A stretch of 57,209 nt of DNA from Catajapyx aquilonaris. Taxonomy: Eukaryota. The notes under the pieces are model-generated. The model was not told the DNA's origin, ran no database searches, and was given only the letters and a program-made list of their open reading frames with translations. The stretch's first letter is position 1. Each line of letters begins with the position of its first letter. The position numbers and the translations under genes are program-made. Shown here in pieces: positions 1-57,209 of the stretch. Location of the stretch: contig KZ538634.1 of assembly GCA_000934665.2 (NCBI GenBank), positions 1 through 57,209 on the forward strand, read 5' to 3'.

Positions 1-99
1 GAGAAACGTCGATCCGATAGTGCAATTCCTCCCATACTCGTGCCAGCATGTCCGTTGTCACTGACTGAACCGCAGTAACAATGCACTGGCATTGAGAGG

Positions 100-525
100 T
101 TCGCCAGTTTCTGAACAATGTGCTCCTTCGTCGTTGGATAGGTCGCAGTGACCTGCAAGACTTGGCGCTTTACTGCTGGCCCCCAAGGTTGCCGGATTTG
201 ACGCCATGCGACTTCTTCCTTTGGGGGTACGTTAAGGATGCTGTGTACGTGCCACCGATGCCAACAACCCTGGATGAACTCAAACATCGCATTGTTACTG
301 CGGTTGAGTCAGTGACAACGGACATGCTGGCACGAGTATAGGAGGAATTGCACTATCGGATTGACGTTTCTCGAGTGACCAAGGGAAGTCATATAGAACA
401 TTTATAAGGTATGAAATAAACTTTGAAACCTCCTCTTTCATTTGGTGTATAACACGTTCATGTGCGGTTGATAGGTACGGAGCTATATGCATTTGTAATT
501 ATACTATTCATTTGTAATCACCCTG
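100..525 (+). mobile_element. 3' part of Tc1/mariner (rosa/DD41D-like) transposon, degenerate transposase plus right TIR
   Basis: RWIGR...WPPRLPDLTPCDFFLWGYVKDAVY...DMLARV*EELHYRIDV..TKGSHIEHL* (stop 405-407). Terminus CATTTGTAATCACCCTG followed by TA at 526-527. Confidence 0.85.
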
Positions 526-1555
526 TATATTGCCCTATTGCTGGTCTCTGCCCTCCCCGAAATTCTGCAGCCGTTATTTATGAAGTGTTCTCAAGTGCAC
601 GTAAATGGAAGCAAACAATTAGTGCCTTACCAAATTTCTTATTGCGATTAACCATTTTCTTCTGGGCATCTTATCGGAGCCCCATTCTTAAATAACAGAG
701 AGAGGGAAAGCACAGCATTGTCAATGCCCTGAGTTGAGTGTAGAAAGTCCCCGGTATTGTAATCGGCCACTGACTTATACAAAGCCTATAGGCGCCTAGA
801 GGCCTTACTGGTTTCGGGTTTTCGGCCTGTCGGTATTATTTTGGTTTTTCTTGTAAACCTGACCCCTTTCTTGGTCACGCAGGAGACCCTATAGCACTCC
901 CGTGCTGGCTCCAAGTTTAGGGGTGCAACCCCTGCTTTTCGCAAAAAAAAAAAAAAAATGAAAAAAGAAAAGAACGGGGAAAAATAACACTTTCAGGTGA
1001 CAACTCATAATTATGGAAACGTACTTCGCATATCATGAGGACAGGTGAAAAATGGCATAAAATCTTTTGCGCATTAAAACTGCCGTGATATAAATTTATA
1101 TATATATACAAAGTTTTATTTACAAAAAATTAATTGTTGAAATGCTATGCCACGGTCTTACTCTTAGGGGCTTCCGCCCCTTAAAACGTGTTAAAATAAA
1201 ACGCACAATAACACGAATTCCAACAAGAAAATAATTTTATCATAATTATGGAAGTAGTGTGATAATGTAAAAATGGAATATGAGTTTTAACATTTGAATT
1301 TATCAATTAAATGCCACGCAATTTATTTTAAAAAGAGATCCTAGTATTATAGATTCACAATAATGAATCAACAATGCTGTATTTCCATAGTGAGTTACTG
1401 CGTAAATAATATAGGAAATAACAGGCCCTAAATCACATACAGTGTACCTCTGGCAGAATACGATGCTGAGCATGAGAAAAGAGCGTGAAAAATACAATGT
1501 TCATTTCTATATTTATAGGGCTTTTGACAGTCGGCTGGCAAGAAGACGGGCAACA

Positions 1556-3774
1556 ATGGCTCCCGCAAAGCGGAGAAAGAGTAGCGCCTTATGGAACTAC
1601 TTTACAGAAGACGACAAGACAGCAGCAGGAACAGCTAGATGCGACATTTGCAAGAAGACCATTTCTTGCAGGACATCAGTTTCCAATCTGAAATCTCACA
1701 TGCAAAAACAACATCCAACTGTAATAATCGAGTCTGAGCGAGCCCAGCAGCAAGAACATCAAGGAAGCAATCCAAACGATCCTCCCCAGCCGCCTCTGCT
1801 GCTCTCCAGTCAGGAGCAGCCATCTACATCAGCAGGCCAGCAAGGTTCTTCCACTACTCCCAGCACAAGCAGTTTTCTCAATGCTCCCAGCAGTGCAACG
1901 TCGACAACGCGACAGCAGGCAGCTATGACTTCTTATCTGGTCCAGCGAAAGCCAATGAACATCACCAAGCAAAAAGGACATGACGACGACCTGATGGGAA
2001 TGTTTTACCGAGATTACCAGCCGTTTTCCATCGTTGAAGACCCAGGCTTTCGGAAGTTTGTGCACGGGCTGAATCCCGATTACAAACTACCCGACAGAAA
2101 AACTCTATCAAATTCCAAGCTCCCTGCAATTTATGAAAGTAGCGTCACGGCTGTAAAAGAAAATCTGGTCGGGGCAGAGAAGGTGTGTTTGACGACGGAT
2201 TGTTGGACATCACTCAACAATGAAAGTTTTCTAAGCGTCACGGCGCACTTCGTGAGCAACGACTGGGAGATAAGAAACGTTTTGTTGGAAGTGGATGCCA
2301 TGGAGGAAAGGCACACAGCGGAAAATTTGGCCACTGCACTGCGACGCATAGTGGTAGAATGGAATCTGGCGGGCAAAATTTCTCTGATTGTGTCAGATAA
2401 TGCATCTAATATTGTCCGTGCTGTTGAGTCCCTCGGATATGGTCATTTTGGATGCTTTGCCCATACTCTTAACCTAACAGTCAAGAGCAGTCTTTCGGCA
2501 GCCGAGCCCATTTTGAAGAAAATTAGTAAGCAGGTAACATATTTCAAGAAAAGTCCATTGGCAATGGCGAAATTGAAGCAATCGCAAATTTCAAGTGGAG
2601 CAAAGACGCCCTTGGTCCCCATCAAGGATGTGGAGACGAGATGGAACAGCACCTACTTCATGGTGAAGAGGTTTCTTCAAATCCACGAGCACATGCGGAC
2701 CACGGCAATTTTACTGGACTCTAGCCTTCCAGTGTTTGTCGAAGAAGAGATTACAATATCCCAGGAACTCGTGGAAATTCTGGGGCCATTTGAGGAGGCG
2801 ACGAGAGCTACGAGTGGGGAGAAGTACTTAACAGGTTCTGAAGTCATACTGATGGTCCAAACCCTGCTGGACTTCTGCATGCAGGCTGCCAGTATGGCTT
2901 TTCACAACATAACTATCTCTGTGGCAACATCAATGATGTACGATTTAAGTCGACGCTACAGCGGAATCGAGCACAATGAGAATTTGTCGTCGGCCTCTTA
3001 CTTGGACCCCCGTTTTAAGATGGCGGTGTTTTCGTCGGCTACAAAGCCTGACGTGGAGAAGTGGGTCAAGGCAGCGTTATTGAAAATGTATCGGCTGGAG
3101 GAGGCAGCATCATCTGCGGAACAGCAGTCCAGCAATGCATTTGGGACCCCTCAAACCAGCAGGGAATCAACTAATGCAACTTTCTCCCTCTCTGCCAAAA
3201 TGGAGCAAAAATTGGCGTCACGCCAGCCATCCATTACTAGCCTAGAGGCTAGAGCGATTTCTGAAATGAAAAGGTGAGTCTTACGTAGGCCTATAATTAT
3301 CATCTGGCAAAAAGATTGACTACAGCATAAAATAATTATGTGGTATCACCTGTATTTTTGCCATTTACTGCCACATTCGCAATTATTATTTAATAGCAGC
3401 ACCTTTGCCTCTTGATGACAGTCGCTGTATATTAAAATTACTTCTGCTGTATTAAGTGCAATTAATCAGGGCACAAAATAAGTACTGCATGATTTATTAT
3501 GTTAGCATACTCAACATGATTTCCATTTTTCAGATATCTGGACGCTCCCTTCTTAACAAGTAAGGAAGACCCTCTTCAATGGTGGCGAGACCATGAAAAG
3601 ACATTCCCATCTCTCTCCAAGTTGGCCAAGAAGAAGCTGTGTGTGATGGCAACATCAGTGCCCTGCGAACGCGTTTTCTCGAAAGCAGCTTGCTTCATTA
3701 CAGAACGCCGTAACAGACTCAAAGCAGACAAGGTCAAGAAACTCATGTTTTTGAATGCCAACTATGAACGATAA
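1556..3774 (+). CDS. Intact two-exon BED-finger hAT transposase (ZBED1/4-like), about 652 aa; exons 1556-3273 and 3534-3774
   Basis: BED finger (LWNYF..CDICKK..NLKSHMQKQH), LTTDCWTS, IVSDNASN, CFAHTLNL, TRWNST. Phase-2 intron AG|GTGAGT (3274) to TTTTCAG (3533) joins in frame to the hATC domain DPLQWW...ATSVPCERVFS...MFLNAN*. Confidence 0.92.
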
Positions 3775-4496
3775 ACATTGTTTAGGCCACTTCCTGTTCT
3801 GAAGTCATGAAAATTAGATATCCTCTCTCACTATAAGGTCCAGTTGCACTACCTCCATGTAACTTGATCAAGAAGGGAAGGAGCCAGGGAAGTTAGCTTT
3901 TCATTGCTGTGTATCTCCTGTGTGTAGGCAGATGGTATAACTGCGAAATCTGAAAACCATGTAACTATTTGAGCAGAAATTTGTTTATTGATCTTCACTA
4001 ACCACCTTATCGATCTGATGTCCAAATCTCTGAATGCAATGCAGAAGAACAGCGATGGGACGTCGCGTCGGAAGTGTGGAGGTCGTGGAGACTGGAGATC
4101 AAAGGTTACCCATCACTGTCGTATGTATAATGCAACTGTAATGTCACCACGTTCCACTTATTCAGCACTAATAAACATACAATGTAATTCACAATTTATA
4201 TCGCTCTTTTCGTAATCTTATCTTTGCAGTACGGTACATTATTAATTTGTGCAAACTTCAGCCGATTGCCAGAATGCTACTATCTAGCTGGGTATATATA
4301 GTAGCAGCTCAGGTAAAGTCAATGACGAGGCAGCTATTGTCTGACCAGAAGCTATAGAGAGAGAGAGTCGGTGGGTTTTTCCCCCACGCCACCCCACCCC
4401 CTCGAAAATGCCCCGCTTACCAACAATATTAATCCGCAAAAGGGTTCGGAAAGATCAGTTTAAAAGGAGACGTTGCCATAATTGTGGATCTGTGGT

Positions 4497-4576
4497 CAGT
4501 GGCGGAACTTCAAATTCTGGGCCCCCCTGCAAGTAGTTGTTGTGGACCCCCCCCTCCCCTCCCCATTAAATAATAC

Positions 4577-4617
<41 letters not shown>

Positions 4618-5489
4618 TAATAAATAAGAGAAATCGATGAATTTCAGGACAGTTTCTTTTTAATGGTACGCGTGTACTAGCTAGTAAATGACAGAAGTTC
4701 AATACATTCAATATCTTCAATGAGTTCCATACAATTATTTTTCCAACAATACGAAAAAAATATTTAATGCATCTTTCTTCTTTTAGCACAGCGGTTCTCA
4801 AGGTGTGGGGCGCGAAGGGGTGATGGTAGGGGGGGCATGGGGCGAATCAAAAAATTATGTGACTCGAAACATGACAAAAGTCGCACTGCTCAGGGCTTAT
4901 TGTAGCGTGCAGTTCTACACAATTCGTGCAGTACTAAAAGCCAAATGTGCAGTTCTGAATAAGGATTTGTGCAGTCAGATAATAGCAGACAAGTCTGTTA
5001 TATCTGCATTCAACTGCACTTGCACATTAGCACTCCTGGAAACATGAAGGGGCCGATCTTTCTACTTGCTTATATCCGATGTGCTTACAGAGTTACAGTA
5101 TAGGAGGATTCCACTGTACTTGTCAGTTATTACATGCACCTAAGATTGCGTGACCTTGAACAAAAAAAAATCGCCTATGGCGGGCTTATTCGTTTGGGGG
5201 AGGGCGCGCGAAATCAGAAATTACTTTCTAGGGGGGCCCGATGTGGCAAAGTTTGAGAACCGCTGCTTTAGCATTAGCAAAGTCGTTGATAACTTCATCA
5301 ATGTTCAGTGCCTTAGCTTTCAATGCTAAGTAAAAAATGCAAGTCCACGTAGTGTGTCCTCCTTCATAGAATTGCGAAGGTAAGTTTTTATTATTTGCAT
5401 TTTTTTTTTACTTCACTCGTGTTTGGGCCCCCCCTTGCTTCGGGCCCCCCTGCGGCTGCAACCACTGCACCCCCCTAGTTCCGCCACTG
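4497..5489 (-). mobile_element. Non-autonomous hAT (Tip100-like) element
   Basis: 13-bp TIR CAGTGGCGGAACT; perfect 8-bp TSD TCTGTGGT (4489-4496, 5490-5497). Minus-strand remnant IIKTYLRNSMKED...NIDEVINDFA at about 5274-5400. Contains (TAA)n at about 4568-4625. Confidence 0.88.
4789..5265. mobile_element. hAT (Charlie/Buster-like) MITE
   Basis: TIR CAGCGGTTCTCAA / TTGAGAACCGCTG; 8-bp TSD TTTTAGCA vs CTTTAGCA (7/8 match). Confidence 0.85.
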
Positions 5490-5949
5490 TCTGTGGTTAT
5501 TATACGTATAAGAAATTGTAATAAGGCACCCTGATGGGCACCATCTTATTCCGGTCTGACCTTTCCGAACCCTTTTGCAGATTAAGATTGTCGGGAAGTC
5601 GGGCATTTTCGAGGGGGTGGGGTGGCGGTGGGGATTTTGGCTTGATGGGAAAAACCCAGCATCTTTAACTTCTGGTCAGACAATAGGTAGTAGGTAGCCC
5701 GAGGGGTAGCTATAATTTCGTCAAGCCCAATGTTACTCTGCAATTCCAATTCCATTAAAATAGTGCTTCCAATTTCACCAAAAAACACCCAGTCAATAAA
5801 TCTCCCTGAAGCTTGTGTGACCTTGAACCTGAAATTTTTTCCGCCTGCGGCGGGCTCTTGCGCCCCGCCTTCGCCGACTCTGGCGGATCTACCTTTTTGG
5901 GTTCGTTGGGTACGCGCTTTAGAACACTTTCTGTTCATCAGTCCTGACG

Positions 5950-6289: not shown

Positions 6290-6690
6290 GAAAATGGTCA
6301 AGGGGTAAAAATGTTTATTCCGGGACACCCGTGGAGACACAGAAGCCGACCGAGGTTGGATGCTAACGGGGAAGAGGCATCTCCGCCCAGCTATACCTTC
6401 ATCCAGTGCCGCCGCTATTTATTGGCCATCATGAGCGCAAAACTGTCAAGGGGTAAGAATATTTATTCCATGCCACCCGTGGACACACAGAAGCCGACTG
6501 AACTTGCGAGCGAAGGAGGAAGCAGAATCTCCCCCCAACAATACCTTCCAGTGCCGCTATTTATTGGTCATCATGGGTGGAAAACTGTTAAGCAGCAAGA
6601 ATATTCATTCTTTGACACCAGTCTCCACGCAAAAGCTGACCGAGCCTGGAGGAAGGAGGAAGCAGCATATCCACGCAGCTTCCAGTGTCG
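6290..6690. repeat. Degenerate tandem repeat of about 145 bp, about 2.7 copies, upstream of the THAP start
   Basis: CCCGTGGA(G/C)ACACAGAAGCCGAC and CCGCTATTTATTGG(C/T)CATCATG each recur at about 140-150 bp spacing. Confidence 0.75.
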
Positions 6691-7429
6691 CGTTGGTGGT
6701 ATACAGGGCAGCAGGTGTAAATGTGAATTATGCCGCAGAAATCGGGAGGGTTTGTGTGTGCCGCTCAGGGCTGCCGAGAGCACAAAAGAAAATCATCTCT
6801 CTCGTTTTTTCGTTTCCCGAGTTCGCCGAAAAGGTAAGAGATGCGTTCCTATTGGAATTTTGTATTGTAATAAGAATAACGAGGGAGGAGAGTAATTTAT
6901 ACTGTTACGTTACCCGCAGATGCCAGTTATGGTGCGTATCCTGTGGAAGACAAGATCTTGTGCAAAAGGATCCCAAGCTGTTGAACAGGAATTATCGCCT
7001 CTGCAGCTCCCATTTTGAGAGATGGGCATTTATGAATGCAGAGACTCGCAGCAGGCTCGTCCATGATGCATATCCCACCATTTTTCTCCATGGTGGAGGA
7101 ACTGGTTCTGGTAAGCGGTTGGTTTTGTGACATGCAGATTTCCATTAATATCTTACTCACGTGAACATGGCCACGCCAAATATATATATTTTCAAGTGCC
7201 TGTCTGAAATGTGGCTGTCTCAGTATTTAGAGTACTCTAGTTCTTGAACACTTTCCATTAGTGCAAGAAACAATATAAGCTACTTCACCATTCTATTAAT
7301 TTATGGCAAGCATGTCCTGTGCCACTACAGAAGTGACATGTATATACAGCCAATTGCACACTCCTGTAGCAATTTAAGTGTTGCTAAGTCCCTAAGACAT
7401 ATTACTACTAAACTTTCCTATGGTTCTAG

Positions 7430-7620
7430 ATGAAACCGTGCCACAACCCATGGATGATGAAACCGTGCCACAACCCATGGATGATGAACCTGTGCCACAA
7501 CCCATGGATGATGAACCTGTGCCACAACCCTTGGATGGACCAGTGACACAACCCTTGGATGTACCAGTGACACAACCCTTGGATGGGCCAGTGACACAAC
7601 CTATGGATGGACCTGTGGTG
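7430..7620 (+). repeat. Coding 27-bp minisatellite (DETVPQPMD-like, about 7 copies) in exon 3 of the P transposase
   Basis: GATGAAACCGTGCCACAACCCATGGAT units grading into DGPVTQPL variants. Confidence 0.9.
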
Positions 7621-8833
7621 CAGCTTGAAGTTGTATCAGGACTTCATGAGGGACTGCCAACCACTACTGACTCTCTACTGCCTGTTGATTCCCTGCTGCT
7701 GACTGGCACAGGTACGTAATGGCTCATGCCATGCATTATTTTTGGAAACTCAGTAGTAGATAGTACAACCTGGTCAGAGATTATGGGAAATATAATTATG
7801 TAGTCAGTTATTTCTGTATTAACTTTTACATGGTGCTAATTGCTGGACAAAACAAAGTTTTTAACTAAGCAATGGAACATAATATAACTTTGTAACAACT
7901 TACTATAAAATAAAACAATATTATTACACTTGTGTAATAAGATACATATTATGAAAAATAACTTTTGCCTTTTTTAAGCTGTTAAAGACATAGCATGACT
8001 TTGTTAACCCATTAAACCGTCATCAATTAACTGTTATTTGGAAAACTGCAGTGCATACAATTATTATGAAATTGTGGCTCAGGTAACTTAGTTTTTATGA
8101 CCTCCACATCACCATCTGAAACATCTTCATGCACTGGTTACTTTGATGATTCCTGACCCCATTAAAATTTTTGAGCGTCACAAAGGAGAAGTTGTCCTTA
8201 GTAGGCCTATCCACTATTTGTCTCATGAAATGTTTCAGAATATTTTTCCCACAAAATGAAACTAATACCCAATCTCCCAGGTTATAACTTTTGTTCTTTC
8301 CTTTAATGTAAGATTTTATTTAAAAAATTTGTGTATTGATGACCTTCTCCATCTCTCCAGTTACTAACAATAAGTCTATAGTTCATGAGAAACTAGGGTT
8401 CAGTGAACATTGGTTAAATATGAATTACTTAGAGTGTACGGTACTTACTTTTATGTAACATTTTACTAAGCACCCCAATGCTGGTCTGTTGGTTGGTACC
8501 ATGAAGATCACATAGTTACATGACATACAGTATGTCTCACACTACAAAAATTTGAATATTAATTGTATAATATGTTTCAGTGAGTTGGTAAAAACTGTTG
8601 TTCGGTGTACATTTCTATGAAAATAGCCTAGTACTCGTATATTCCTCATCATTCATATCATCATTATCATGCCATGTGCATCACACCTTTGTTAATACCG
8701 AGTCAATTAAACTATTTCAGTAACACCAACTAAGCGAGGAGCATGCAACAGTCAAGATGAAGATCCTCCCAGCACTGGACCAAGTCGTCCAACACCCAGG
8801 ACACGCCGCCGACTGATGAGGATGAGGACGACT

Positions 8834-8937
8834 GTGTCAGAGTTACGGCGACCCGACCATAAAGGCCCCGCGCCAATGTATCTCATCATCCACAATTATT
8901 CAAAGGCTAATCAATGAGGCTATCAAAGGGCTAATCA
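8834..8937 (-). mobile_element. 5'-truncated 3' tip of the R1-like LINE family
   Basis: 8832-8914 is identical to 57101-57183 and overlaps the 3' UTR at 41864 onward. 12-bp TSD ATGAGGACGACT (8822-8833, 8938-8949). Confidence 0.8.
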
Positions 8938-11494
8938 ATGAGGACGACTCTGAGACAAGTGCGAGGGAGGCTCTACCGAGCTGACAAAACAGTAAAACGA
9001 CTGGGTGGATGGAGGGTTACAGCTGCAGCAGAAGACAGTTGCGAGCGCCAAGAACTGCTTAAACTTTCACGCAAGTACCTACCACAGCGGTTTGCAGACA
9101 GGGTGACCACTGAGCTCAGATTGGCCACTTGTAAACCTAAGGGTCGAAGGTGGAGTGACAAGGACAAAGGTTTTTCATTAGACTGTTCTATCACAGTCCA
9201 GCAGCCTATAGACAACTGTCCCAAACTTGCACTGTACCCACTGAAAGAACTCTTCAGCGTTGGCTTTCCTGTATTCCAATGCAGTCAGGACTGTTACCTG
9301 TGGTCCTGACGGCATTGGAGAGGAAAATACCCGCAATGGAAGAGAGAGACAAAGTGTGTGCACTTGTTGTAGATGAAATGCGTATGAAACCTGGTCTTTC
9401 ATACAATCCAACCAAGGAAAGGACTGCGTGGAGGGCTTTGCAAGCCCCTCAGCTGTTCCTTCCCAGTGTAAGTCTGCGGCAAACCAGGCAACTGTGCTAA
9501 TGGCTAAAGGCCTTTTTCAGAAATGGAACCAACCGCTGGGGTATTTTTTCAGTGCAGGCCCTATGCCAGGAACTAATTTACATAAGGTGTTGCTGGACTG
9601 CATTGAAAAGATCTCCAGCATAGGTCTGAAGGTGAAGGTGGTCATTTCTGACCAAGGTTCCAACAATTTAAGGGCCTTTAGCTTGTTCGGCATCAGCTTG
9701 CAGACTCCATATATTGTCCACAATGGTGAAAAAATTTACTTCATACATGATCCCCCCCATTTACTCAAAAACCTCAGAAATAATTTGAGAAATCATGATT
9801 TGTCGTTTGGTGGGCGTATTGTCAAGTGGAAATATATTGGAACCATCTGTGAGCGTGATGCCAAGCAGTCCGCCAGGAGATTGCTGCCACGAATCACACC
9901 ATTACACTTGTTGCCCAGCCACAAAAAAAAAATGAAGGTGCGCTTGGCAGCTCAGGTACTCAGTTACTCCATGGCCTCTGCCATGGAGACGTATGTTGGG
10001 CTCAATTGCCTACCACCAGAAGCAGCCTTTACTGCTGAGTGGCTGGAGTTAGTTGATAAGTTGTTTGATTCTGTAAATAGTTCGAAGCTGTATGATAACT
10101 TGAAGCCAGCAAAGGGTGCATTGAGGAACAATTCAATGCACCTTGCTTTTTGGCAACAAGTGACAGAATCATTGAACACCTGGAAATTTCTTGGCATGAG
10201 TAGGCAACCTGACTGTCTGAAAGGGTGGAAGCTAACGCTGCAAGTCCTTCCAGAGCTGTGGTCAGAGTTGCAACTTTTGCCAGGTGTACAGCATTTGCAT
10301 TGTCGTAGGCTAAATCAGGACACTCTGGAACACCTGTTTGGGATCATTCGTGGGAAGCTGGGTGGGAACAGGGACCCTACACCTGTGCAGTTTTTCGCGG
10401 CGTTCAGGCGGGTGATCACACGTTCCCTTCTGAAGCCTTCACTGAAGGGGAATTGTGAGGCGGATGAGGGGTACGTGCTGACGGAGCTGGGGCGACTTGG
10501 GATTAACAAGGATGTAGGAATAGGTGAAGAACCCCCAAGTATGAGTGCTGCAGATTCCTTTTCCATGAGTGACTTTGATGATCCTACTGAGAATGCTTTG
10601 TATTATATATGTGGATACCTGAGTAGAAAGTTCTTAACAATGCATGACTGCTCTGCATGCAAAGCTGCACTGGTGCAGGCTGATCATGCTGTCAGCCGGC
10701 CAGAGCAGCTATTTTGCACGTTTAAAACCCTAACCTCTAGTGAAGAGAAGGCATGTGGGGGGTTGACCATGGTCACGCAAGAATGTTTTGTGTACATAGA
10801 AACCCTGGAATGTAAGTTTGATGGAATAATTGCATCACTAGCCCATGAGGAAAAGGTGGTGAAGAAGCTGTGTGACACCCTCAAAGAATGTGTCAAGGTA
10901 CCTGCATCGTTGTTTTGCTCAGAAGTAGCTCAGCAAAACTTTCTTAGACTGTACTGTAGGATTAAGGTGTTGTGGTGGATTAGATTTACAAACAGGGATC
11001 TGTATTATAAAAAATAGAATGCAGTTTCAATTTTAGTCAGAGTGTCGCAGCTGCTTCACCACCTTTTCCTTACAATAATACATAGAGTAAGCCAAGCTAA
11101 TGTGGAATACCAACTCTGTTTTGGTTAATAACTGGTTTAGTTACAGTGCTTTTTGTTTTCCTATTTAGCAGAATAACCTGGAACATATACCTGGCAAATG
11201 TGTTAAGTTTCATATTTGTACTTTGATCAGGTTTTTAAATAATTTTGACAAACTGGCAAGTTCCAAATTCCCCAAGTATGGAAATTGTGAGGATAATGTG
11301 GAATACACTGTGTGGGTAATGTGGAATGCAGTATTCACATTACCCACAGGTTGTCGTATATTGAAATGCATAAGAAAATAATGTTGATTGTAGGAACTGG
11401 ATATGTTATTAATATGTTTCCTGCCAGCATGGTATGTGGATGATAAAATCAGTATAAAAATGTAAACTAAACAAACCACAGCACAAAATTCAAG

Positions 11495-11648
11495 CTACTG
11501 GCAGAAACCACAAATATAAATTCCTCGGTTTGAAACGTTACAGCATTTCTCATGTGTCCACAACTGACATCCTACACACTGGATCCACTCACTTTCCTGC
11601 ACATCCGTGTAGAAAGTTTCGTTGCAAAATAATTATGCATTCAGCCAT
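11495..11648 (-). pseudogene. PHD zinc-finger remnant, below the ORF-track cutoff
   Basis: MAECI-(4-nt insertion)-FCNETFYTDVQESEWIQCVGCQLWTHEKCCNVSNRGIYICGFCQ*, a C4HC3 pattern with WIQC and W-x-H. Confidence 0.75.
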
Positions 11649-15300: not shown

Positions 15301-15303
15301 ATA

Positions 15304-25165: not shown

Positions 25166-25169
25166 ATCA

Positions 25170-40926: not shown

Positions 40927-40944
40927 CAAGGTGAGACCACTTCA

Positions 40945-43964: not shown

Positions 43965-44244
43965 CCCAGAGAACTGCAACACGCCAGTGATAGAGGTCAA
44001 AGGCAACCTTCTTTCACCACATTGTGCATTTGAGGTCCTTGGAGAAGGGGTGCACATTGTTTCCGTCCTTGACCTCACCCAAGCAGTGGAAGTACTTGTA
44101 GCCACCCACTACATCTTCAACCTTAAATACCACCCTAAGATTTTGGCAACAATGACACTACTACAGCACTGTGTGTTTGACATCCCTGCTGACGTGCTTC
44201 CTCGCCCTGTGAAGACATTTTTAAAGAACTTCGGAGAGCTGTAA
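43965..44244 (+). pseudogene. C-terminal exon of an EnSpm-associated accessory protein
   Basis: AVEVLVATHYIFNLKYHPKILATMTLLQHCVF motif. Confidence 0.55.
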
Positions 44245-44420: not shown

Positions 44421-44902
44421 AGTGCCATGAAGTATGGGCATGACCATGAAGATGGGGCATCGATGCAGTCGAGGCTGAGGAGGGCGTCACAGTGGATGAG
44501 TGCGGACTGTTCATTGATCCCGACCTGCCGTACCTGGGTGCTACTCCGGATGGGGTTATTGGTGACGATGGCTTAGTGGAGGTGAAATGTCCGTCGTCAG
44601 CTTGCGACATGACACCAGAAGAAGCAATTTTGCAACGGAAAGTGACGGCATGGAATGTCAACAAAGACAAAACCCAAATCACCGGCAAAAACACCAACCA
44701 CTCATACTTTTATCGGGTTCAAGGACAGCTCCACGTGACCAGGAGGAAATATGCCCTATTCTGTCTGTGGACCAAGAAAGGCATGAAGACGGAACGGATC
44801 ATGAGGGATGACGATTTCTGGAGAAGCAAAATGGAGCCTAAGCTATCACAGATTTATATGAACTGCTTTCTCCCGGAGATAGTAGATCCCCGAAAAGGTC
44901 GA
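44421..44902 (+). pseudogene. YqaJ-family nuclease fragment, copy 2
   Basis: Near-identical DNA to 32609-33073. Confidence 0.9.
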
Positions 44903-45419
44903 AAAGAGAAGAAGAGAAAAGGTCGAAGAGAAAATGAGAGGGCCACATTACCAGCCATCTAGTGTCGAAGAGTTGCACTCAAGATTGAAATTCGCGGGTG
45001 ACTCTGTACGGGTCATCGTTCATGACCTCATCACAGAAGTTGCCAATTTGGCACCATGCAGCATGGAACTATGTCCCTATCACCGTGGATTTCTGGTTTT
45101 TGCATTAGACTGCGCGGTACAGGGTACTTCATATTCTGAGTTTCGGTCATTTTCGCTAATAGTTTCTGTTACATTAACGACATTTTGTTGATATCTGGCA
45201 ACTAAGAAACATGGCCCAGAACATGCACTACCACTAGCCTATGACAAAATAGATTTTTACATTAGTTTTAAAATTAAAGCGCTATTATCACCCGCATTAT
45301 GCCTGTGTTTGGGAGTTTTAACACAGACATATGCGAGATATTGACTTTGCTCATAATTGTTTTCTCGCCTGTTAAAATGTAATTCTTAATATATCAACAT
45401 TGGTATATCTGTTTTCAGC

Positions 45420-45700
45420 ATGCGGGAGTGAGCCATCGCTACGTGCCAAAATTATTCCAGGATAACAAAAAGGAAAGGTTTGGCGGTATCATACTTCACA
45501 TTTCCCAAGGACCCTGATATCAGACGCGAATGGATTAGGAGGTGCAAACGTTCGGATTACCTCAATCCTGACACGGGCAGAATTTGCTGTCCATTTTGCC
45601 GAGGATGATTTGGAACGGGATCTAATGAGCGAATTGATGGGGGCTCCAGCTAGGAAAAAATTACAAGCAGGCGCGATCCCGAGTCTGTTCCTGCAAGGAA
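45420..45700 (+). pseudogene. THAP domain remnant (P-superfamily)
   Basis: ATCQN..SYFTFPKDPDIRREWIRRCKR..RIC..HFAEDDLERDL..KKLQAGAIPSLFL. Confidence 0.85.
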
Positions 45701-45979: not shown

Positions 45980-46774
45980 AAATTGATATGTTCCTCCTGT
46001 CCATAAATGTTTCCCATATGTGCGAGAGGGGTGCCCGAAGTATAACTAGTCACATTAAATTTGGGAAAGCTGCAGAGTAGAAGTTTCTTCTGTACTTCTC
46101 TGTACCCGTACTCGCCACGCTATTGCCCAAGGAATATTTTGAGCATCACAACATGCTGTAAGTGGCTTGTGTTGGGATGTTATCAACTGACCAAATCCGT
46201 ACCGGGGACGTCATCATTGCAAAAAAAGCACTGAGGGAATATGTATTTAAATATCAAGAACTGTACGGAGCACGGCATATGTCAGCCAATGTCCACCAGA
46301 TAACACATTTGACTTATTCCATACGTGAATTGGGTTCTCTGTGGGCCACTTCCTGCTTTGGCTATGAGAGTGCTAACGGCAATTTACTCAGAACCACTCA
46401 CGGCACGCAACACATCCGCCTGGAACTCGGTAGTGCAATAGCAGTACATAAAGCTGAAAGCACTGATTGCGCAAGTATCCGCACACCTCCGGCCATTTGC
46501 TACGAAATTGACACAACAGAATGCCAAGTATCATGTGATGGAAGACTTGGGTGACAATTTGTTTACCATAGGTACGTATGACTGTTCAGTTCCAAGCGAA
46601 CTGCATACCATCCTTATTTCACAACTGAATGGAGACTTCTTGGCAAACGTGTGCCACTTTCAAAGAATTGTAAAATCTGGTACAGAATCATACCGCCCCG
46701 ATGCTAAGAAAAGATCTTGTTACGTGATGTACAGTTGTGGAATGTACGGTGTAATCAAATATTTTGTGAAATAG
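45980..46774 (+). pseudogene. EnSpm/CACTA transposase C-terminal fragment
   Basis: KAAE..FLLYFSVPVL..ELYGARHMSANVHQITHL..LGSLWATSCFGYESANGNL. Confidence 0.88.
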
Positions 46775-48014
46775 GACTTGAAAGGGGAATTTCATGATGA
46801 TTCCAGCATGACATATTATAGTGCTGTAATCCAGGGTTACCGCATAACAGTACCCTTCAGGACCACGATGGTTGTAAATAATGTTTCTGTTCAGCAAGTA
46901 TTGCGAGAAATTGCATAGCCTCAGAGGGTTATACCACCAGACCCATCAGGTAATGTACGAGTAGACCTACACTATAGGCTATAGCTTATTAGGCCTATAT
47001 AATAAAATACAGTAATACTGTAATAATTACTCTAATTGGGCTGTTTTTTTTTGTATTCAAGGACCGGTGGAGGCGGGAATGGTGATGTGGATCAGCAGCT
47101 ACAGAGAAGATCCTCCCTGGTACTATGTAGTGACAAAGGACTTCAAGAAGCAAAGGAAGGTGGACATCGTCACGGTCCTTTGGCCTTCCTCGAAGAAACT
47201 GATCAGGGTCCCGCGGAGCTATTTGCACCATAACTTCAAGAAGAACGTCGAGAAGTTCACTGTAAGTGCGGTCTCAGTACTATATGATGATGTGCTGTCA
47301 ATGACGAGTTTGACAAAAGAGCAGTTCGACCTTCTCCTACCCTTTTTGGAAACGTTTCGTAACAAATTTTGCGTTCACCAGCGAAACAAGTGAAGATACG
47401 ATGATTGAACGAATAGGAGGAGCGTTTGAGGAGCTCCTTCGGCACCTCCCTGATCCAAAGTAAGTGCCTGAAATACCCAAACTGCACACTTTTAATCAAG
47501 TACTAGAAAAATTTTCTATGGCGCAAGCGTATAAAAAGGTGAGCCATAGAAAAATGCGCGAGTAGCGAGTGTTTTCTAGTCTTATAATAATGCCTGATTT
47601 ATTATTCAAATCACAGATTTGAGTTTATGAAGGTGTTCGTAAACGAACTGAAGGTGCCAAATGTCCTTCCAAACAATGTTTGGAACGGAAACTTCGTCAA
47701 CCACTCTTCTAAGGACATGTTCACGTGGTCCAACTCGTCCAGTTCAGGGTAACAATGGTTGACATCGTGATACTTGCGCAGGGCTTGCATCGAACTGCGC
47801 CACGGAGCACCATTATTGTCTGGAGTTCGGTAGCCTCCCATCGTTGCCTGGGGTGCCAACCTACTATTGTTGTACAGAGTGTCAACCTCATATGATTGCA
47901 TTTTCTGAAAATTTTGGCATACCTCTGGCATACTGCCGAGAGATAATACAGATAATGTAGTGGGGTATAAAAAGGGAATGCACTGCAGAAATGGGAGGGA
48001 GGGGGGGGGGGAAT

Positions 48015-48210
48015 TCCCAGAGGGGAATGTGTGTGGTCGACGAAAGGTCCAATTGCTGCATTACAGTGGCGTGACAAACGCCTTGTGCATGTGATGAGCA
48101 CTGCTCATAAAGCAAGTGATGCTGTGCATGTGAGAAGGACACGGAAAGATAGTAGCAGAATAGCATTGCTTTCCCCTGCCATAAAAATTAGAGACTATAC
48201 AAAGTTCATG
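48015..48210 (+). pseudogene. piggyBac transposase fragment
   Basis: PRGE..ALQWRDKRLVHVMSTAH..VRR..P..IRDYTKFM. Confidence 0.8.
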
Positions 48211-49100: not shown

Positions 49101-50062
49101 CAGGGCATTTGACTGAGGTCAAATCTAACATCTTATCAGATGGTTTTTTTCCGGTATTAGTCCCGGAACCGGCGAGAACATGGGAATTGTCACTGAATTG
49201 AAGCTACAGGAGGCAGAGATTGTCATTGCCCACCTTCGAGATCAGAACTTGGTGTCAGTTTTCAATTTTCTAATGTTTAAGCTTTAATGCAAATAATAAC
49301 ATTAATTTGATTTTAGAGGCAAATAAACATTAACTTAAATTAACAGCTTTTAATTTGCGTCGGCCGAGTGATAATAATTTTACCCAGATTTTACCCTAAT
49401 GACACTGCAATGTCTTTAACTCGTCCACAGCAAAGTCCACATGCTGATCTTCAGCCATCCCCCCCGTACCCTCCCCCAAACTCCCCCGCTTCTTCGTCAT
49501 CTTCATCCGACTCCGACTCTGCACCTTCCCCTCTCCCNCCCCCCCCCCTCTCCTCTCCCCAAATCCCCCGTCTCGCCAGAGAGATTGTTGTATGGAGAAT
49601 AGCACTTTCCGAGGGAAGGCAACTCTGCAGTCCCAGGGACCACCAAGGTTAATGTCAAGTATGATTTTCATACCACGTTTTTGCAATATTTTTTTTCATT
49701 GCAATAATGATGCTTTACCATCTGCTTTAGATGCGGCTTGTGCTACCGGCAACCAGGGCCGAGTCACTTCTGCCTCGGACAGCCAGGGCCGAGCTTCTTC
49801 TGCTGCAGACAGCCAGGGGGGTTATGCTGGTCGAGCCTCAACGAGAGTGAGAAAGCTGCGCAGGGGAATGACGTCAAGGGGGCGGAGCGTAGGCCCTTCG
49901 CTGCTGGGGTCGCACTCACGAAAGAGACCATATTCTCGTTCCCACTTCCGGATCTCACTTGCGTTGGGGAAGTGGGGTCGGAGCGAGGCTAGCATCTCCT
50001 ATCAGAGCTCGCGGCTGGCCCCACGTGACTTGTGCTGCAGTTCACCTTCGTTACGGGCTATC

Positions 50063-50291
50063 ATGGCGACCGCCAGCACGAGCAAGAAGCGTGAGCCGCG
50101 GCTGCCGAAAATTTCCCATGGCCAGCAGGAAGTCCCTCCTGTCCTACATGGAGGACAACCGACAGCTGGCCACGGGGAAGCTAGACCGCAGTTTCACAGC
50201 ACAGGTTCGCAAGGCAAGCTGGAAGACGCTGGCGGAGAAGCTGAATGCAGAGGGGTCTGGGGCAGCCAGGAACGTAGAGCGGTGGCAGAAG
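50063..50291 (+). pseudogene. Myb/SANT first exon (Harbinger accessory type); low-complexity C-terminal part possibly at 51406-51780
   Basis: LLSYMEDNRQLATGK..SWKTLAEKLNAEGSGAARNVERWQK|GTGAGA. Confidence 0.75.
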
Positions 50292-51919
50292 GTGAGAATT
50301 TTAGCCCCAAAGCACCTTGGACTTGGGGTTGGGTTGTAGGTGGAAACATTTCTCTCAAGAATGCGAGACCATTGCATGTGTGGTTAATGCAGATATTATA
50401 AACATTTAACTACATTACATGCACCTTCAAAAGTGCTTCATGGAGCAAAGCAAGTTGTAATTCAGCCAATCAGGCACTCAGCAAGATATTGTGAATACCA
50501 TAACCATTTTGACATGAAGCTCTGAATGTACCAAGTCACGTAGCGCAAGTATGCGGATTTCCTTTGTCATTTTTTTCAGCTGCAGCGGCTTTTGTAGAGG
50601 TCGTGAGCGAGTCATTGGATGGTCATGATAATTAGAGATGGGAAGGTACTTCGCCCTCTTATTGCCCGCCGGGGCGTTTTTTGCATGAGATGTTCACCTG
50701 AAAGCGATGCTGTTCTGCTGAAGGCGCAAACGAGCACAGGTCAAGGAACCCACAATGTCCCTCCTCTGACCAATGAAGAGGCGCGCGCATAATGGCAGTA
50801 ATAGGAAGCGTGATGTCAGACCCAAAGGTGGCCACTCTTGGCCTGGCACCACAAAAACAGGTAAGCATGTTGTGCACCAACTGCATGAAAATTGCCAGTA
50901 CAACAGAGGAGTAGGAACAAAAATTCAGCCTGTGTTGTAAGGGAGGGAAAGCCAGTTACTTGGTTTGCACTCATTTTCAACAACAGCCGTATACCACCCT
51001 TTGGAAAATATCACTGTGGCAGGCCTCAATCACGCATTCCTTTTCACTTACGTGTATAAATATGCCATACACTAACAAACTGATATGACAGGTTTTTCTA
51101 TGTGAAGTCCGCTGAATAATGAAAATCTTTTTAACTGGCTGTGGTTCTCATGAAGACATATTCATAGATCTTATTAGCCAGCCTTTCAATTAATTATGTG
51201 GACTTTGCATTTTTCATTGTAATGGCACCACTCCAGTGGATATAACAGCTGCATATTCCTAAAGCACTGGAAAAACTGCCCCTTCAAGTGCTACTGTATG
51301 TGCTGCAAAAAGTTGGAATTAGCCATATGGAGGTGTTACCAACATCTTGCAGCATATTGTACATAAGTTATTCTGAATTATCATATTTCATCACTTTCCA
51401 CACAGGTAGAGCCATTTGAAGATGACGACGAGCACCGAGATGGGGATGATATGACGCCACCCCCACCCCAGACTCCACCACCCTCTCCACAACAGCAGGC
51501 TTCCACTCCACCACCCCAGACTCCACCACCCACTCCACAACCGCAGGCTTCCACTCCACAACAGCAGGCACGGGGTCCAAGTAATGCAAGGGGAGCTGTG
51601 TAGTCTGCAGCGTTGGAGCAGGATCGGGACACTCACGACCGGTAGTATACTCTGAAAGAGGAGTACTACAAAAAACAACTGGCATTGGAGGAGAGGACGA
51701 CAGTGGCCCCGGAGGAGAAGGTGAAGTTGGCTAAAAGGAAGACAGTGGCACTTGAAAACCAGTCTGCTGCAAGTCAGCAGTTCACGACAGAGGAAGCCAT
51801 ATACACCACATACGAACGGGCACGTTTAAAATTCATACCGAAATGTGGCCACCGAGCAGAAGACCTTACTAATGTCGTTCTGAATACCTTGAAACATTAC
51901 GACTTGGGATATCGCTAAT

Positions 51920-52665
51920 AATGTTCTGAAGAAGGTGTCAACATACTCCACTTACTTGAAGAAAAGTCCCAAGTCCTTAGAAACTCTGAAAGCATCCCAG
52001 CTATCCAGTGGGAGAGAGCCGCCCTTAGTGCCCCTCAAGGACTGCAACACCAGGTGGAACAGCACCTTTTACATGGTGGCGAGATTCATCAAAATTGAGG
52101 AGCACATCAGGACCACAGCCGTCCTGTTAAATGCCAAGCTTCCCATTTTTGCGGAAAAAGAGATGCAAATGTGCAGGGAAGGGAACTGGTGGAAGTGCTG
52201 TGTCCCTTTGAGAAAGCCACCGTCACAATGAGTGGGGAGATTATTGTGATGTGTCAAGCCCTTACCGAAGTGTGCATCGAAATGTTGAAGAAACATTACC
52301 ACCACCTGACCCATGCTGTCGTGGTCCAGCTGAAGAAAGGCCTCTCCGACCGCTGCGGTGGCATTGAACGGGAGTGGCCCATGGCACTTGCCACCTACCT
52401 CGATCCTCGGTACAAGAACAGCGTCTTCAGCGGTACCACGAAGGAAGACGCGGAGAAAAGGATTAAGGGTCGCTTGATGCGGGCAGTACTGGCGGAGGAA
52501 CCGGTAGGCCTATCAACACAGCACAGCTGGAGCAGCCTCCTGCACAACATCGGGTGCCAAGCCGTTCTCCGGTTTCTCCCTGGCTGCGAAGATCGCCCAA
52601 AAGGTGGCCCACTTCCAGCCTACTACTACATCCCGGGAAGCAAAAGCCATCCATGAGATGCAAAG
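51920..52665 (+). pseudogene. Degenerate paralog of the BED-hAT transposase at 1556-3774
   Basis: KKSP..LVPLKDCNTRWNSTFYMVARF..HIRTTAVLL..YLDPRYK..EAKAIHEMQR|GTGATT, with the same intron position as EMKR|GTGAGT. Confidence 0.88.
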
Positions 52666-52748
52666 GTGATTATGAGAGACAGTTTTCTTCCAATAAGCCA
52701 CATGCTGCCAGAGAGTCGATACTTTTTTTTTTTGTATATATGTACTAG

Positions 52749-53990: not shown

Positions 53991-54329
53991 CCCGGTAACC
54001 CACAGAGAACCTGCTGCACAGAATAGGTACTGGGAAAATATCAGACACCGACGAAGGTGAACTCCAGGAATTTTATATCTCCAAAAAGTGGTACATTCAA
54101 GGTGGTGCGAAACTCTTTCTTAGTGGTACAAAACTCGCCACACTCTGTAGAGTCAGATTCTAGAATCAACTGACCTAAAAAAATATACAAGTTGGAGAGA
54201 TACAAAACTCTTTCTTGTGGGTCAGCACCAGGTTGCGCATATACAGTTGCAGTGCTGTCTAAAATCCCCAAATGAAGTGAAGTTGTGATGGTGCTGAACA
54301 GAGGCGCCATGCATCACCCAGACAGTCCC

Positions 54330-55270
54330 ACAACTTTGTCTGCGAGCGAAACAGTAAGCAGAGCGACTTCCTCAGCAATGGTCACAACAAGGCTCGCCTC
54401 ATCGAACTCTTGATGGAAAGTTTCCAGGAGATCGGTGTCACTGTGTGTCAAGCAGATACAGATACTTTCATCGTCCGTACCGCACTGGAGAAGTGCAGTC
54501 GAGGACGAGACGTCACGGTGATCTCAACAGACACCGACGTCCTTGTCATGCTTGTGGCTCGCTCAGAGGAAGCCAGCCAGAGGTCTGACGATTATACATC
54601 CAGGAACCAGCTCAGTGCCAGGAAAGATATTCCTTCCATCGAGAATCCAAGATGAGGTTGGCGCCAAGAAGAATAGCTTGCTTTTCTATCACGCTATCGC
54701 TGGTTGTGATACCACTTCCGCAATCTTTAGGAAGGGGAAGGTCTGGACATCGCTTGACAGGAATGAAGAATTGCGAGATTGCGCAGCTGTGTTTAACAAT
54801 TCATCGGCTAAGAAAGAGGACGTTATTGCAGCAAGTGAGAGGTTCGTAATGATATACAGCAGCGAGGATTTCAACAGAACTCCGCCACCGCATGTACTCT
54901 GTCTAGGCAGGCTGTGACAGCGACCTTCGAGCTCGCCAAATTGCCTCCGACAAGCACTCACTTAGGACCTACTTACAAGCAAGTCTGAATTGCGCGCTAA
55001 AATGACGTATTGTTGAGATTATACATTCCGACTTTCGCTATTTGCTTCAGGTCCAGGTTGATTGATTGATTGATTGATTAATGGTTTAATGGCGCAACAG
55101 CAGCAATGGCTATACTGCGCCAAGCACCTGTGACGTTGTAGGGGGTCCAGGAATGGTCCATTGTGCCCCTCTGACTGGGGTTGGCGTCAGGTGCAGCAGG
55201 ACTTGGTGCCAGTTCATACACATCTGCCTCCGGCTCCAGAGTCATTATTGAATGATATATCGTGCGGGAA
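54330..55270 (+). pseudogene. Academ transposase C-terminal (XPG-like) region
   Basis: FLSNGHNKARLI..DTFIV..VISTDTDVLVML..FYHAIAGCDTTSA..KGK..LPPTS..RTYLQ|VQEW..PSDWGW..PPAPESLL..ISC. Confidence 0.88.
55058..55143 (-). mobile_element. 3' tip of a LINE/SINE (I/Nimb-like) with (CAAT)n tail
   Basis: Reverse complement GGCGCAGTATAGCCATTGCTGCTGTTGCGCCATTAAACCATT(AATC)n; TSD GGTCCAGG (55050-55057, 55144-55151). Confidence 0.7.
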
Positions 55271-56090: not shown

Positions 56091-56429
56091 TACATACGAG
56101 TCACTTCCTGCCTGGAAGGGAAGAGATAATAGAAGCAGTTAAATGTGGTCAACATGATTCTGTGGTATTACTAGAAGCTGTAGGATTAGGCAACTACAAA
56201 AACAGTGTTTCAGTCGTTCCCTTAGTTAAACAAACACAAGAAGACAGTGTACGTGATACTACAGGATATGCCACGTTTCCCCCCGAATAAAATACATCAG
56301 ATAACAAACAACTTTTACTCATCAAACCTATGTACATTGGCAACTGTTTTTAGCACAGTAATCCGCAAACTGAGGTTTTGTGATATTACGCTTTAAGCTC
56401 TCTTTCTTCTCCCCCCCCCCCCTTTTTTT

Positions 56430-56609
56430 TCCTATTCAGTATATGCGACTTTTTTGTTTAATGAACACTCCATACTACTACAGGGAGCACAATATTATGT
56501 ATCATATGCAAGTGTAATGTATTTAATGTAAACATTGCGGGGACCTCCCCCCCTTATGTAAAGGCGGAAGCCTACCAGGGGAAAAGAAATAAACTAAACT
56601 AAACTAAAC
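56430..56609 (+). mobile_element. LINE 3' UTR with (CTAAA)n tail
   Basis: ...GGCGGAAGCC...GAAATAAACTAAACTAAACTAAAC. Confidence 0.5.
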
Positions 56610-56766
56610 AGTGTAAGTGATGAAGAGGATACATCAGACAATGAGGCGAAGAAGAAGAGACGCCCAGTGACGATGAACCACATGGCTTACGGAAGCACCA
56701 CAGAGCTGAGTTAGAGAGGTCATACTGTTGTGGAGCTCCTCTGGAGATAAGTGCAGCAGCGGTATA

Positions 56767-57060
56767 ATGGCGGCCTCCCCTTTAACTGGGGCAACACTAC
56801 GGCTGCTATTAGAGGAACACAAGTCCAGTCTATTGCTCGACTTAGAGCAACAGTTCCAAAATGAGGTAGTAGAACTACTGGCAGTGAAAGTGGATCTTAT
56901 CCACACAAAGTTGGAGCAAGTAAAAGGCATGTCAACCACCCTGGAACGTCAAGTTGGGGGGGGGGGGGGGGGGGGGNGGGGGGCGGGGGGGTTGTGGGAC
57001 CAAGTCATGGCACTGCAAAAAAAGTAATAATTGTGCAATTGTGTAATTTATATGGCATGT
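56767..57060 (+). pseudogene. Coiled-coil fragment resembling a LINE ORF1 N-terminus
   Basis: Heptad-rich ORF followed by a degraded NN..IYG motif; interrupted by a poly-G/N artefact. Confidence 0.45.
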
Positions 57061-57100
57061 CCCTGATTCTTACCAGTAATAATATTATTCATTGCACGAG

Positions 57101-57209
57101 CTGTGTCAGAGTTACGGCGACCCGACCATAAAGGCCCCGCGCCAATGTATCTCATCATCCACAATTATTCAAAGGCTAATCAAGAGCAAGAATTTACATT
57201 TACTGTCCT
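57101..57209 (-). mobile_element. Third copy of the R1-like LINE 3' end, running off the window
   Basis: Identical to 8832-8914; one mismatch to 41864-41918. Confidence 0.85.

Follow-up and report, generated by a model that had tools for sequence, protein, structure and literature searches.

Across the whole of the window (the complete stretch of 57,209 nucleotides that was analyzed, hereafter 57 kb), the recognizable coding remnants of transposable elements (TEs) lie predominantly on the plus strand, and this polarity is confirmed as real and strong. The window is a gene-poor accumulation of such remnants, mostly of cut-and-paste DNA transposons, in an animal genome. We consider it a candidate uni-strand piRNA cluster with a minus-strand precursor, a reading with which the polarity is consistent and to which we assign a probability of roughly 0.35; the locus is thus a reasonable candidate, and no established finding as yet.

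Strand bias of the recognizable remnants

We searched all 786 stop-to-stop open reading frames (ORFs) of at least 40 amino acids in the 57-kb window (391 on the plus and 395 on the minus strand; 362 of at least 60 residues and 424 of 40 to 59) against Pfam, blind to strand. Domains above the curated cutoffs were found in 16 of the 391 plus-strand ORFs and in a single one of the 395 minus-strand ORFs (Fisher p = 1.2e-4). After merging ORFs by element, approximately 13 independent plus-strand loci stand against one minus-strand locus (binomial p = 0.0018); the former comprise a hAT, a P element, a Tc1, a mariner, a non-LTR reverse transcriptase, two YqaJ genes, three Myb/SANT genes of the Harbinger-partner type, a second THAP finger, and one fragment each of HECT and RING type. 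Two plus-strand loci beyond those of Pfam come from homology (another hAT, and the ORF within an element that has long terminal inverted repeats [TIRs]), whereas the minus strand holds at most a Harbinger DDE fragment, a young poly(A) retroposon, a further copy of the retroposon's end and a PHD finger that fell below its cutoff. The supported totals are therefore 13 to 15 plus-strand against 1 to 4 minus-strand loci, with a locus ratio that ranges from 13:1 through 13:2 (p = 0.0074) to a worst case of 13:4 (p = 0.049). A preliminary description of this DNA had counted about 40 pieces on the plus and about 8 on the minus strand, from more than a dozen TE groups. The bias itself held under systematic annotation and binomial testing, as did the prevalence of DNA transposons of diverse families (hAT, P, Tc1, mariner and Harbinger partners, all recognized by Pfam), but the 40:8 count was not reproduced, and the supported diversity is smaller, at about nine unrelated TE groups plus three ubiquitin-system fragments.

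The same bias is seen when no database is consulted: ORFs of at least 150 residues number 22 on the plus and 5 on the minus strand (p = 0.0015; shuffled sequences give about two per strand), and those of at least 200 residues number 11 and 1. When 122 retrieved proteins were compared with the window by tblastn, matches fell exclusively on the plus strand. Plus-strand loci occur between 1.4 and 52.7 kb, populate each half of the window and lie to either side of the N runs, and the bias is present in every third of the window. The pieces are not repeats of a single unit: self-BLAST showed hardly any duplication within the window, and none, tandem or segmental, that could explain the bias. The one exception is the pair of YqaJ pieces, which lie in direct orientation and share 94% nucleotide identity across 482 nt.

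Unannotated ORFs of at least 100 residues show no strand asymmetry (31 plus, 25 minus), poly(A) signals are symmetric (AATAAA occurs 33 times on the plus and 36 times on the minus strand), and within the first 25 kb the unannotated sequence has no strand compositional asymmetry; the annotated plus-strand ORFs are A-rich and purine-rich (purine excess 7.2%). Among the unannotated plus-strand ORFs that were tried, the one searched by sequence yielded a relative and two gave Atlas leads, and homology testing of the two largest unannotated minus-strand ORFs returned no relative.

Plus-strand elements and minus-strand exceptions

The first element is a hAT transposase gene (1415 to 3771, plus strand), with a BED finger in a 620-residue open frame (zf-BED, 43.6 bits) and the hAT dimerization domain in the following ORF (Dimer_Tnp_hAT, 76.7 bits). 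It has 180 homologs at E <= 1e-10 (best identity 40%; ZBED-like hATs of insects, spiders and fish) and a plus-strand tblastn match at 1556 to 3768; the protein domains of a hAT transposon (BED finger, RNase-H-fold transposase and C-terminal dimerization domain) are present. Such elements also have short TIRs and an 8-bp target-site duplication (TSD), and the flanks searched contained no TIR with an exact 8-bp TSD. A P-element-like unit follows (6435 to 11014, plus strand), consisting of a THAP ORF (6435 to 7127; 37.2 bits) and ORFs with TNP-like RNase H and GTP-binding domains (9159 to 9497, and 9377 to 11014 with 546 residues open; TNP-like_RNaseH_N 65, GBD 64.8 and RNaseH_C 36.1 bits, all four domains being above cutoff). 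THAP together with a TNP-like RNase H carrying a GTP-binding insertion domain is the domain combination of P element/THAP9-type transposases, and we infer that these ORFs belong to a single element; neither TIRs nor a TSD were found for it, nor its ends. In the Tc1-type element at 15304 to 17170 (plus strand) both ends are intact. Its TIR arms (15302 to 15435 and 17047 to 17172) are 89% identical and flanked by a TA target-site duplication, and between them lies a DDE_3 transposase (38 bits; HTH_33 scored below cutoff), an arrangement that places it in Tc1.

Several of the remaining plus-strand pieces are isolated fragments. At 18221 to 18907 lies the C-terminal end of an isolated HECT ubiquitin-ligase domain (24.0 bits, against a cutoff of 23.9), its last 42 or so residues being followed by a stop; it has no PDB match, and no other HECT piece occurs in any ORF of at least 40 residues. 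The reverse-transcriptase fragment at 24263 to 25172 (RVT_1, 33.8 bits, with a weak RVT_1 tail at E = 0.094 in the following ORF) we take from its motifs to be of non-LTR type. The long-TIR element (27072 to 29459; 257-bp TIRs, 97% identical) encodes the N-terminal region of a large protein without an assigned family; its ORF at 28015 to 28677 is 52% identical to a 1447-residue hypothetical protein from thrips (E = 1.8e-60), and tblastn matches the element on the plus strand at 27638 to 28915. Farther along the same strand are a mariner transposase fragment (29944 to 30297; Transposase_1, 46.3 bits), the first YqaJ-type exonuclease gene fragment (32420 to 33223; 35 bits), a Myb/SANT-like type 4 DNA-binding gene of the Harbinger-partner type (36140 to 36718; Myb_DNA-bind_4, 54.4 bits), a RING-finger ORF (43826 to 43987; zf-RING_5, 28.8 bits), the second YqaJ copy (44450 to 44959; 30.4 bits), the second THAP finger (45432 to 45605; 35.8 bits), a second Myb_DNA-bind_5 gene fragment (49893 to 50336; 28.5 bits) and a second, degraded hAT transposase fragment (51809 to 52684; 41-61% identical by blastp to the hAT at 1415 to 3274, and matched by retrieved hAT proteins in tblastn at E = 5e-29). 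Two further plus-strand ORFs are leads from the Atlas feature search: a UCH-like (ubiquitin hydrolase) ORF at 40927 to 41589 (scores of 0.90-0.94, UCH clusters included; unmatched in both Pfam and PDB) and, at 46162 to 46551, a DUF4218-like transposase piece (DUF4218 clusters at 0.95).

The preliminary description had held the exceptions to be young TSD-bearing insertions or partner genes of probably bidirectional elements, and two of them bear this out. The first belongs to a Harbinger remnant of two convergent genes (39650 to 40583), in which a plus-strand Myb_DNA-bind_5 gene (39650 to 40144; 48 bits) faces a minus-strand DDE_Tnp_4 transposase (40281 to 40583; 30.2 bits) reduced to its C-terminal 50 or so residues. 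A DDE_Tnp_4 transposase with a separate Myb/SANT-like gene, both above cutoff and on opposite strands, identifies a PIF/Harbinger element; because this preserved example has its transposase on the other strand, the orientation of the elements behind the three plus-strand Myb partner genes is ambiguous. The second is a young poly(A)-tailed retroposon on the minus strand (41822 to 42623), with poly-T at its left end, which inserted into a plus-strand ORF and is flanked by an exact 12-nt TSD (41810 to 41821 and 42624 to 42635) that occurs nowhere else in the window; no protein family was confirmed for its product. A second copy of its 3' end (57155 to 57209, minus strand) matches 41864 to 41918 at 54 of 55 bases and continues past the window edge. 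The last exception, the PHD-finger-like end of a minus-strand ORF (11498 to 11632), scores 20.2 bits against a Pfam cutoff of 24 and matches the third PHD finger of MLL in PDB (MLL PHD3, E = 3e-4); it may have come with a TE or be an exon of a host gene, and the next minus-strand ORF upstream has no homolog among 1.84 billion proteins.

A candidate minus-strand precursor compared with known clusters

The most likely reason for the polarity would be one long minus-strand transcript that reads through the region, with insertions sense to it being lost over time through selection on orientation. Foremost among the candidates for this transcript is a uni-strand cluster's piRNA precursor, whose processing would yield small RNAs antisense to the plus-strand transposase and partner genes. 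The young minus-strand retroposon with its intact TSD fits a filter of this kind, which acts with time and is expected to leave young exceptions. Uni-strand piRNA clusters are defined by uniquely mapping, 1U-biased small RNAs of 24-32 nt from one strand and by one long precursor with a defined promoter. Of their features, the co-orientation of TE fragments from many families is found in the window, and the antisense relation of these fragments to a transcript is presumed. Any promoter of such a cluster would sit outside the window.

The closest parallel is flamenco (flam) of Drosophila. In the relevant parts of van Lopik et al. (2023; PMC10643416), flam-like clusters are described as long, gene-poor stretches with TE fragments of many families mostly in one orientation, as here, and TE co-orientation antisense to transcription serves as the sequence-only hallmark by which they are found, before confirmation by small-RNA sequencing. 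The same account has these clusters enriched in LTR elements, with a strand bias driven exclusively by Gypsy, whereas the window holds hAT, P, Tc1, mariner and Harbinger partners; furthermore, transcription, expression in the soma and piRNAs are demonstrated features of flam and hypothetical ones of the window. The designation flamenco-like in the sense of van Lopik et al. was considered and rejected, because that enrichment in LTR/Gypsy elements (env-bearing ERVs) is absent: no rve/integrase, gag, protease or env domain was detected by Pfam in the 786 ORFs, and the one RVT_1 fragment is the sole reverse transcriptase. More specifically, the window may be a segment of at least 57 kb of a uni-strand cluster in an animal outside the drosophilids (by protein similarity, its nearest relatives are arthropods), with a polarity carried not by Gypsy but by DNA transposons and accessory genes (Myb partners, YqaJ exonucleases and ubiquitin-system fragments), a proposal that we advance tentatively.

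Mammalian pachytene clusters, or 'TE traps', are similar in that they are uni- or bidirectional, that the orientation of trapped TEs and pseudogenes sets piRNA polarity, and that the classes they trap include DNA transposons, according to the pertinent sections of PMC4105748. The marmoset clusters described there have no overall TE strand bias (48% sense) and are biased per subfamily, in contrast to the locus-wide polarity of the window, and polarity is therefore not general to uni-strand clusters. Should small RNAs confirm the cluster, the 'oriented trap' design of flamenco would take in DNA transposons and a further animal lineage, beyond the Gypsy elements for which alone orientation bias in Drosophila is reported in those parts of PMC10643416; antisense capture in a one-strand trap would then be general and independent of the soma-to-germline ERV problem, and polarity would offer a sequence-only marker for such clusters where a genome lacks annotation. 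An intronic window or a chance grouping would instead be ordinary TE-rich DNA.

Other origins of the polarity

Two alternatives to a piRNA cluster are live, in that intronic TE bias or chance would yield the same polarity. Under the first, the window lies within one or more very long introns of a minus-strand host gene or lncRNA whose small exons went unnoticed, with no piRNA function; TEs in sense orientation, which introduce terminators and splice sites, are eliminated, and the survivors, antisense to the gene, are on the plus strand. Selection against sense TEs within a long Pol II unit is established in mammals as far as the relevant portions of PMC3517506 and PMC1794541 describe it, and the PHD-finger-like ORF end could be a host exon. 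The bias documented there is modest, however, and concerns retroelements and ERVs, whereas the window contains mostly DNA transposons; under a 60:40 bias, at least 13 of 15 loci would share one orientation with probability 0.027. No multi-exon or otherwise obvious host gene was found in the window, in agreement with the preliminary description, by ORF and Pfam scans that small exons would escape. The PHD match is under its cutoff with no homolog for the ORF upstream, and AATAAA is not depleted on the minus strand. We rate an intronic origin as unlikely, if well short of negligible.

We likewise regard chance as doubtful; here some 15 orientable insertions would have come to share an orientation in the main by accident, and that accident would have drawn attention to the window. 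Among thousands of TE-rich windows, several with splits of 13:4 or 13:2 are expected, and the independent events may be fewer than counted, as THAP and TNP, RING and YqaJ, and THAP and DUF4218 may each be one element and both YqaJ pieces stem from a single family; the even division of unannotated ORFs also fits chance. Against it stand the strength of the ORF-level test (16 of 391 versus 1 of 395), the ratios among long ORFs, and a bias shared by at least nine unrelated families and by each third of the window.

A preference of new elements for entering older ones in the same orientation, with strand-asymmetric target motifs, is improbable as the cause. Human Alu and L1 elements nest in sense about twice as often as in antisense, as the relevant part of PMC2836564 reports, which shows that TEs in TE-rich DNA can become co-oriented without selection, and the purine-rich plus-strand ORFs would supply an asymmetric target. 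That effect, however, is roughly twofold and specific to target-primed insertion, whereas most pieces here are cut-and-paste elements with symmetric targets (for example, the TA of Tc1), and the one clear retroposon is opposite in strand to the plus-strand ORF that it split. We know of no nested sense bias for cut-and-paste elements. Finally, a meaningless polarity produced by the joining of unrelated contigs is highly improbable: the N runs (55, 36 and 24 bases, plus three single Ns, all within homopolymer tracts) indicate a draft assembly, but the three large blocks free of Ns are plus-polarized independently of one another, and contiguity at the 24-N run is supported by the retroposon's TSD pair, which spans it.

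Coding remnants on the two strands

We scanned all stop-to-stop open reading frames (ORFs) of at least 40 amino acids against Pfam, blind to strand, giving 786 ORFs (391 on the + strand and 395 on the - strand), of which 362 were at least 60 amino acids long (187 + and 175 -) and 424 were of 40 to 59 amino acids (204 + and 220 -). Curated Pfam cutoffs were exceeded by 16 of the 391 ORFs on + versus 1 of the 395 on - (Fisher p = 1.2e-4). The database-free comparison of ORF length gave 22 ORFs of at least 150 amino acids on + versus 5 on - (p = 0.0015; about 2 per strand in shuffles) and, at 200 amino acids or more, 11 versus 1; the unannotated ORFs of at least 100 amino acids, 31 on + and 25 on -, are without asymmetry.

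The + strand domains above cutoff are a hAT BED finger (1415-3274) and dimerisation domain (3520-3771), a THAP domain (6435-7127), P-element TNP domains (9159-9497 and 9377-11014), a Tc1 DDE_3 domain (16331-16903), a HECT C-terminal fragment barely past its cutoff (18221-18907), RVT_1 (24263-24544), mariner (29944-30297), YqaJ (32420-33223 and 44450-44959), Myb_DNA-bind_4 (36140-36718), Myb_DNA-bind_5 (39650-40144 and 49893-50336), RING (43826-43987) and a second THAP (45432-45605); a second, degraded hAT (51809-52684) was found by homology. The + ORFs of the long-TIR element at 27072-29459 (terminal inverted repeats of 257 bp) are a real protein remnant (E = 1.8e-60), and Atlas leads on the same strand are DUF4218-like (46162-46551) and UCH-like (40927-41589). 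The THAP, P-element-type transposase and Myb_DNA-bind_5 content points to animal DNA. The closest relatives of the best-preserved transposase, that of hAT, in insects, spiders and fish, reach 40% identity at most, and another ORF shares 52% identity with a protein from thrips, indicating that the species is absent from the protein collection.

The sole - strand ORF above cutoff encodes the C-terminus of a Harbinger transposase (DDE_Tnp_4; 40281-40583) and is convergent with the + strand Myb gene at 39650-40144. An 802-bp retroposon at 41822-42623 lies on - (its poly-T start is the poly(A) tail on that strand), interrupts a + ORF and sits between the two copies (at 41810 and 42624) of an exact 12-nt duplication absent from the rest of the window; it is a young insertion. 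The preliminary description had attributed the - strand exceptions to young TSD-bearing insertions and to partner genes of probable bidirectional elements, and these two features show how well that account holds. A second copy of the retroposon 3' end (57155-57209, -) agrees at 54 of 55 bases and extends past the window edge. A related 88-bp piece at 8828-8914 is 99% identical, in direct orientation, to 57096-57183, and this shared stretch prolongs the retroposon 3' region past the poly-T point of the 41.8-kb copy, which suggests that the copies differ in tail position or subfamily. The end of a PHD-finger-like ORF (11498-11632, -) scored 20.2 bits in Pfam, below the cutoff of 24, with MLL PHD3 as its PDB match (E = 3e-4). 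For the two largest unannotated - ORFs, the searches returned no homologue of 12084-12536 in 1.84 billion representatives and none of 47614-48060, the latter a weak test in which only proteins of similar length were visible.

Several weaker sources were kept out of the counts. When 68 unannotated ORFs were compared with Pfam at a lax threshold (E <= 5), weak matches appeared on + (DUF4371, E = 0.059; RVT_1 tail, E = 0.094; ZSWIM3_N, E = 0.16) and on - (ZSWIM3_N, E = 0.042). PDB sequence searches with ORFs 40927-41589, 17493-17933 and 18221-18907 (+) and 42230-42637 (-) yielded no usable match. Codon-usage models (sense versus antisense, coding versus background) were powerless, because any open frame has a null mean of 0.17 per codon and the score of a verified + ORF is neutral. 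Pieces picked out by eye from their motifs agree with the preliminary picture: we take these to be MULE-like motifs (14750-15103 and 42635-42807), a FAR1-type finger (34862-35317), a P-like C-terminus (25153-25662), Tc1/mariner-like C-termini (near 96-338 and 31425-31677), a PIN-like motif (54281-54914) and, on -, a non-LTR C-terminal zinc knuckle (42230-42637).

Duplication and locus counts: INDEPENDENCE and SIGNIFICANCE

Self-BLAST and TRF revealed hardly any internal duplication, the sole sizeable direct repeat being the YqaJ pair (482 nt). When ORFs plausibly belonging to one element were merged (the two hAT ORFs; THAP with TNP), about 13 + loci remained. A binomial test on loci gave p = 0.0018 against 1 - locus, p = 0.0074 against 2 and p = 0.049 against 4, the most generous - count; tblastn of 122 fetched proteins matched the + strand only. 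The strand polarity is real, and its direction as first described is confirmed, because it persists in each half of the window and in every block free of Ns; the size first given, about 40 pieces versus about 8, was not reproduced.

Two single-origin readings were rejected. A tandemly amplified unit would appear as duplication in self-BLAST, where there was none of that kind, and a giant element (Maverick or Helitron) would carry polymerase B, integrase or Rep/helicase domains, which occurred in 0 of the 786 ORFs.

Possible sources of the polarity

Polarity of this kind usually arises where a long transcription unit runs along the opposite strand and insertions in its sense orientation are purged. 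Here a long transcript would run along the - strand across the window, sense insertions would be purged, and the survivors would be antisense to it, that is, on +. One version of this cause is the uni-strand piRNA cluster (PMC10643416) and another is the intron of a host gene (abstracts of PMC3517506 and PMC1794541); both predict - strand transcription at the window. We regard the window as a reasonable candidate for a uni-strand piRNA cluster, with a probability of roughly 0.35. A less likely but live alternative places the window within a - strand gene, in an intron or a lncRNA.

Several observations count against a piRNA cluster of the flamenco form: poly(A) signals are symmetric between strands, unannotated DNA in the first 25 kb has no strand asymmetry, and marmoset clusters lack overall TE strand bias (PMC4105748). 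A further point against is that in Drosophila strand bias is carried only by Gypsy (PMC10643416), whereas an LTR domain occurred in none of the ORFs scanned here. Purine excess is 7.2% in the annotated + ORFs and 1.7% in the remainder, chiefly at 25-30 kb and 45-57 kb, which is not a uniform asymmetry of the transcription type. If the piRNA-cluster reading is true, a known kind of cluster would gain a member whose polarity rests on DNA transposons.

Chance, with partial non-independence of the loci, is a serious if less likely rival, since among a thousand windows a few should show a 13:2 split. Insertion mechanics are an improbable source: symmetric targets, such as the TA duplicated on either side of the Tc1 element here (15304-17170, +), make it hard to co-orient unrelated cut-and-paste elements, and the nested sense bias documented in PMC2836564 concerns Alu and L1. 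An assembly artefact is very improbable: the window is not obviously a chimera, one N run lies between the paired 12-nt duplications, and every block is polarised alone.

Composition and other repeats

The 57,209 bases have a G+C content of 40-52% and are interrupted by Ns at six places, three of them runs of 55, 36 and 24 bases (20361-20415, 20838-20873 and 41840-41863) and three of them single positions (37504, 49538 and 56977), each within or beside long G, C or T homopolymers, as is typical of draft assemblies. The block at 20.2-21.4 kb is G+C-rich and of low complexity, and the long ORFs there, on both strands, are artefacts of this composition. Scans of the window for tRNA genes and Rfam families returned no match.

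Ubiquitin-system fragments lie among the TE remnants, all on + (the HECT C-terminus, RING and UCH-like pieces), and may represent either cargo that was captured or parts of host pseudogenes. At the window start, an inverted duplication of 84 bp (1-84 versus 289-372, 96% identical) presumably sits within the apparent C-terminal end of a Tc1/mariner-type transposase, and the piece at 31425-31677 (+) is related to this window start (1-372). A 1.36-kb element at 4331-5686 has inverted arms 82-88% identical to the TIRs of Tc1 15304-17170 and is likely a non-autonomous derivative of that family. Tandem repeats occur at 13824-14286 (173 bp, 2.6 copies), at 29039-29351 (150 bp, 2.1 copies; subterminal within the right arm of the long-TIR element) and, between the THAP and P-type transposase ORFs, at 7429-7617 (24/27-nt units, about 7 copies), the last of which looks coding, with a + strand peptide repeat rich in proline and aspartate. 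An inverted repeat at 21330-22532, with arms of about 350-390 bp that are 74% identical and without coding match, appears to be a foldback or MITE-like structure.
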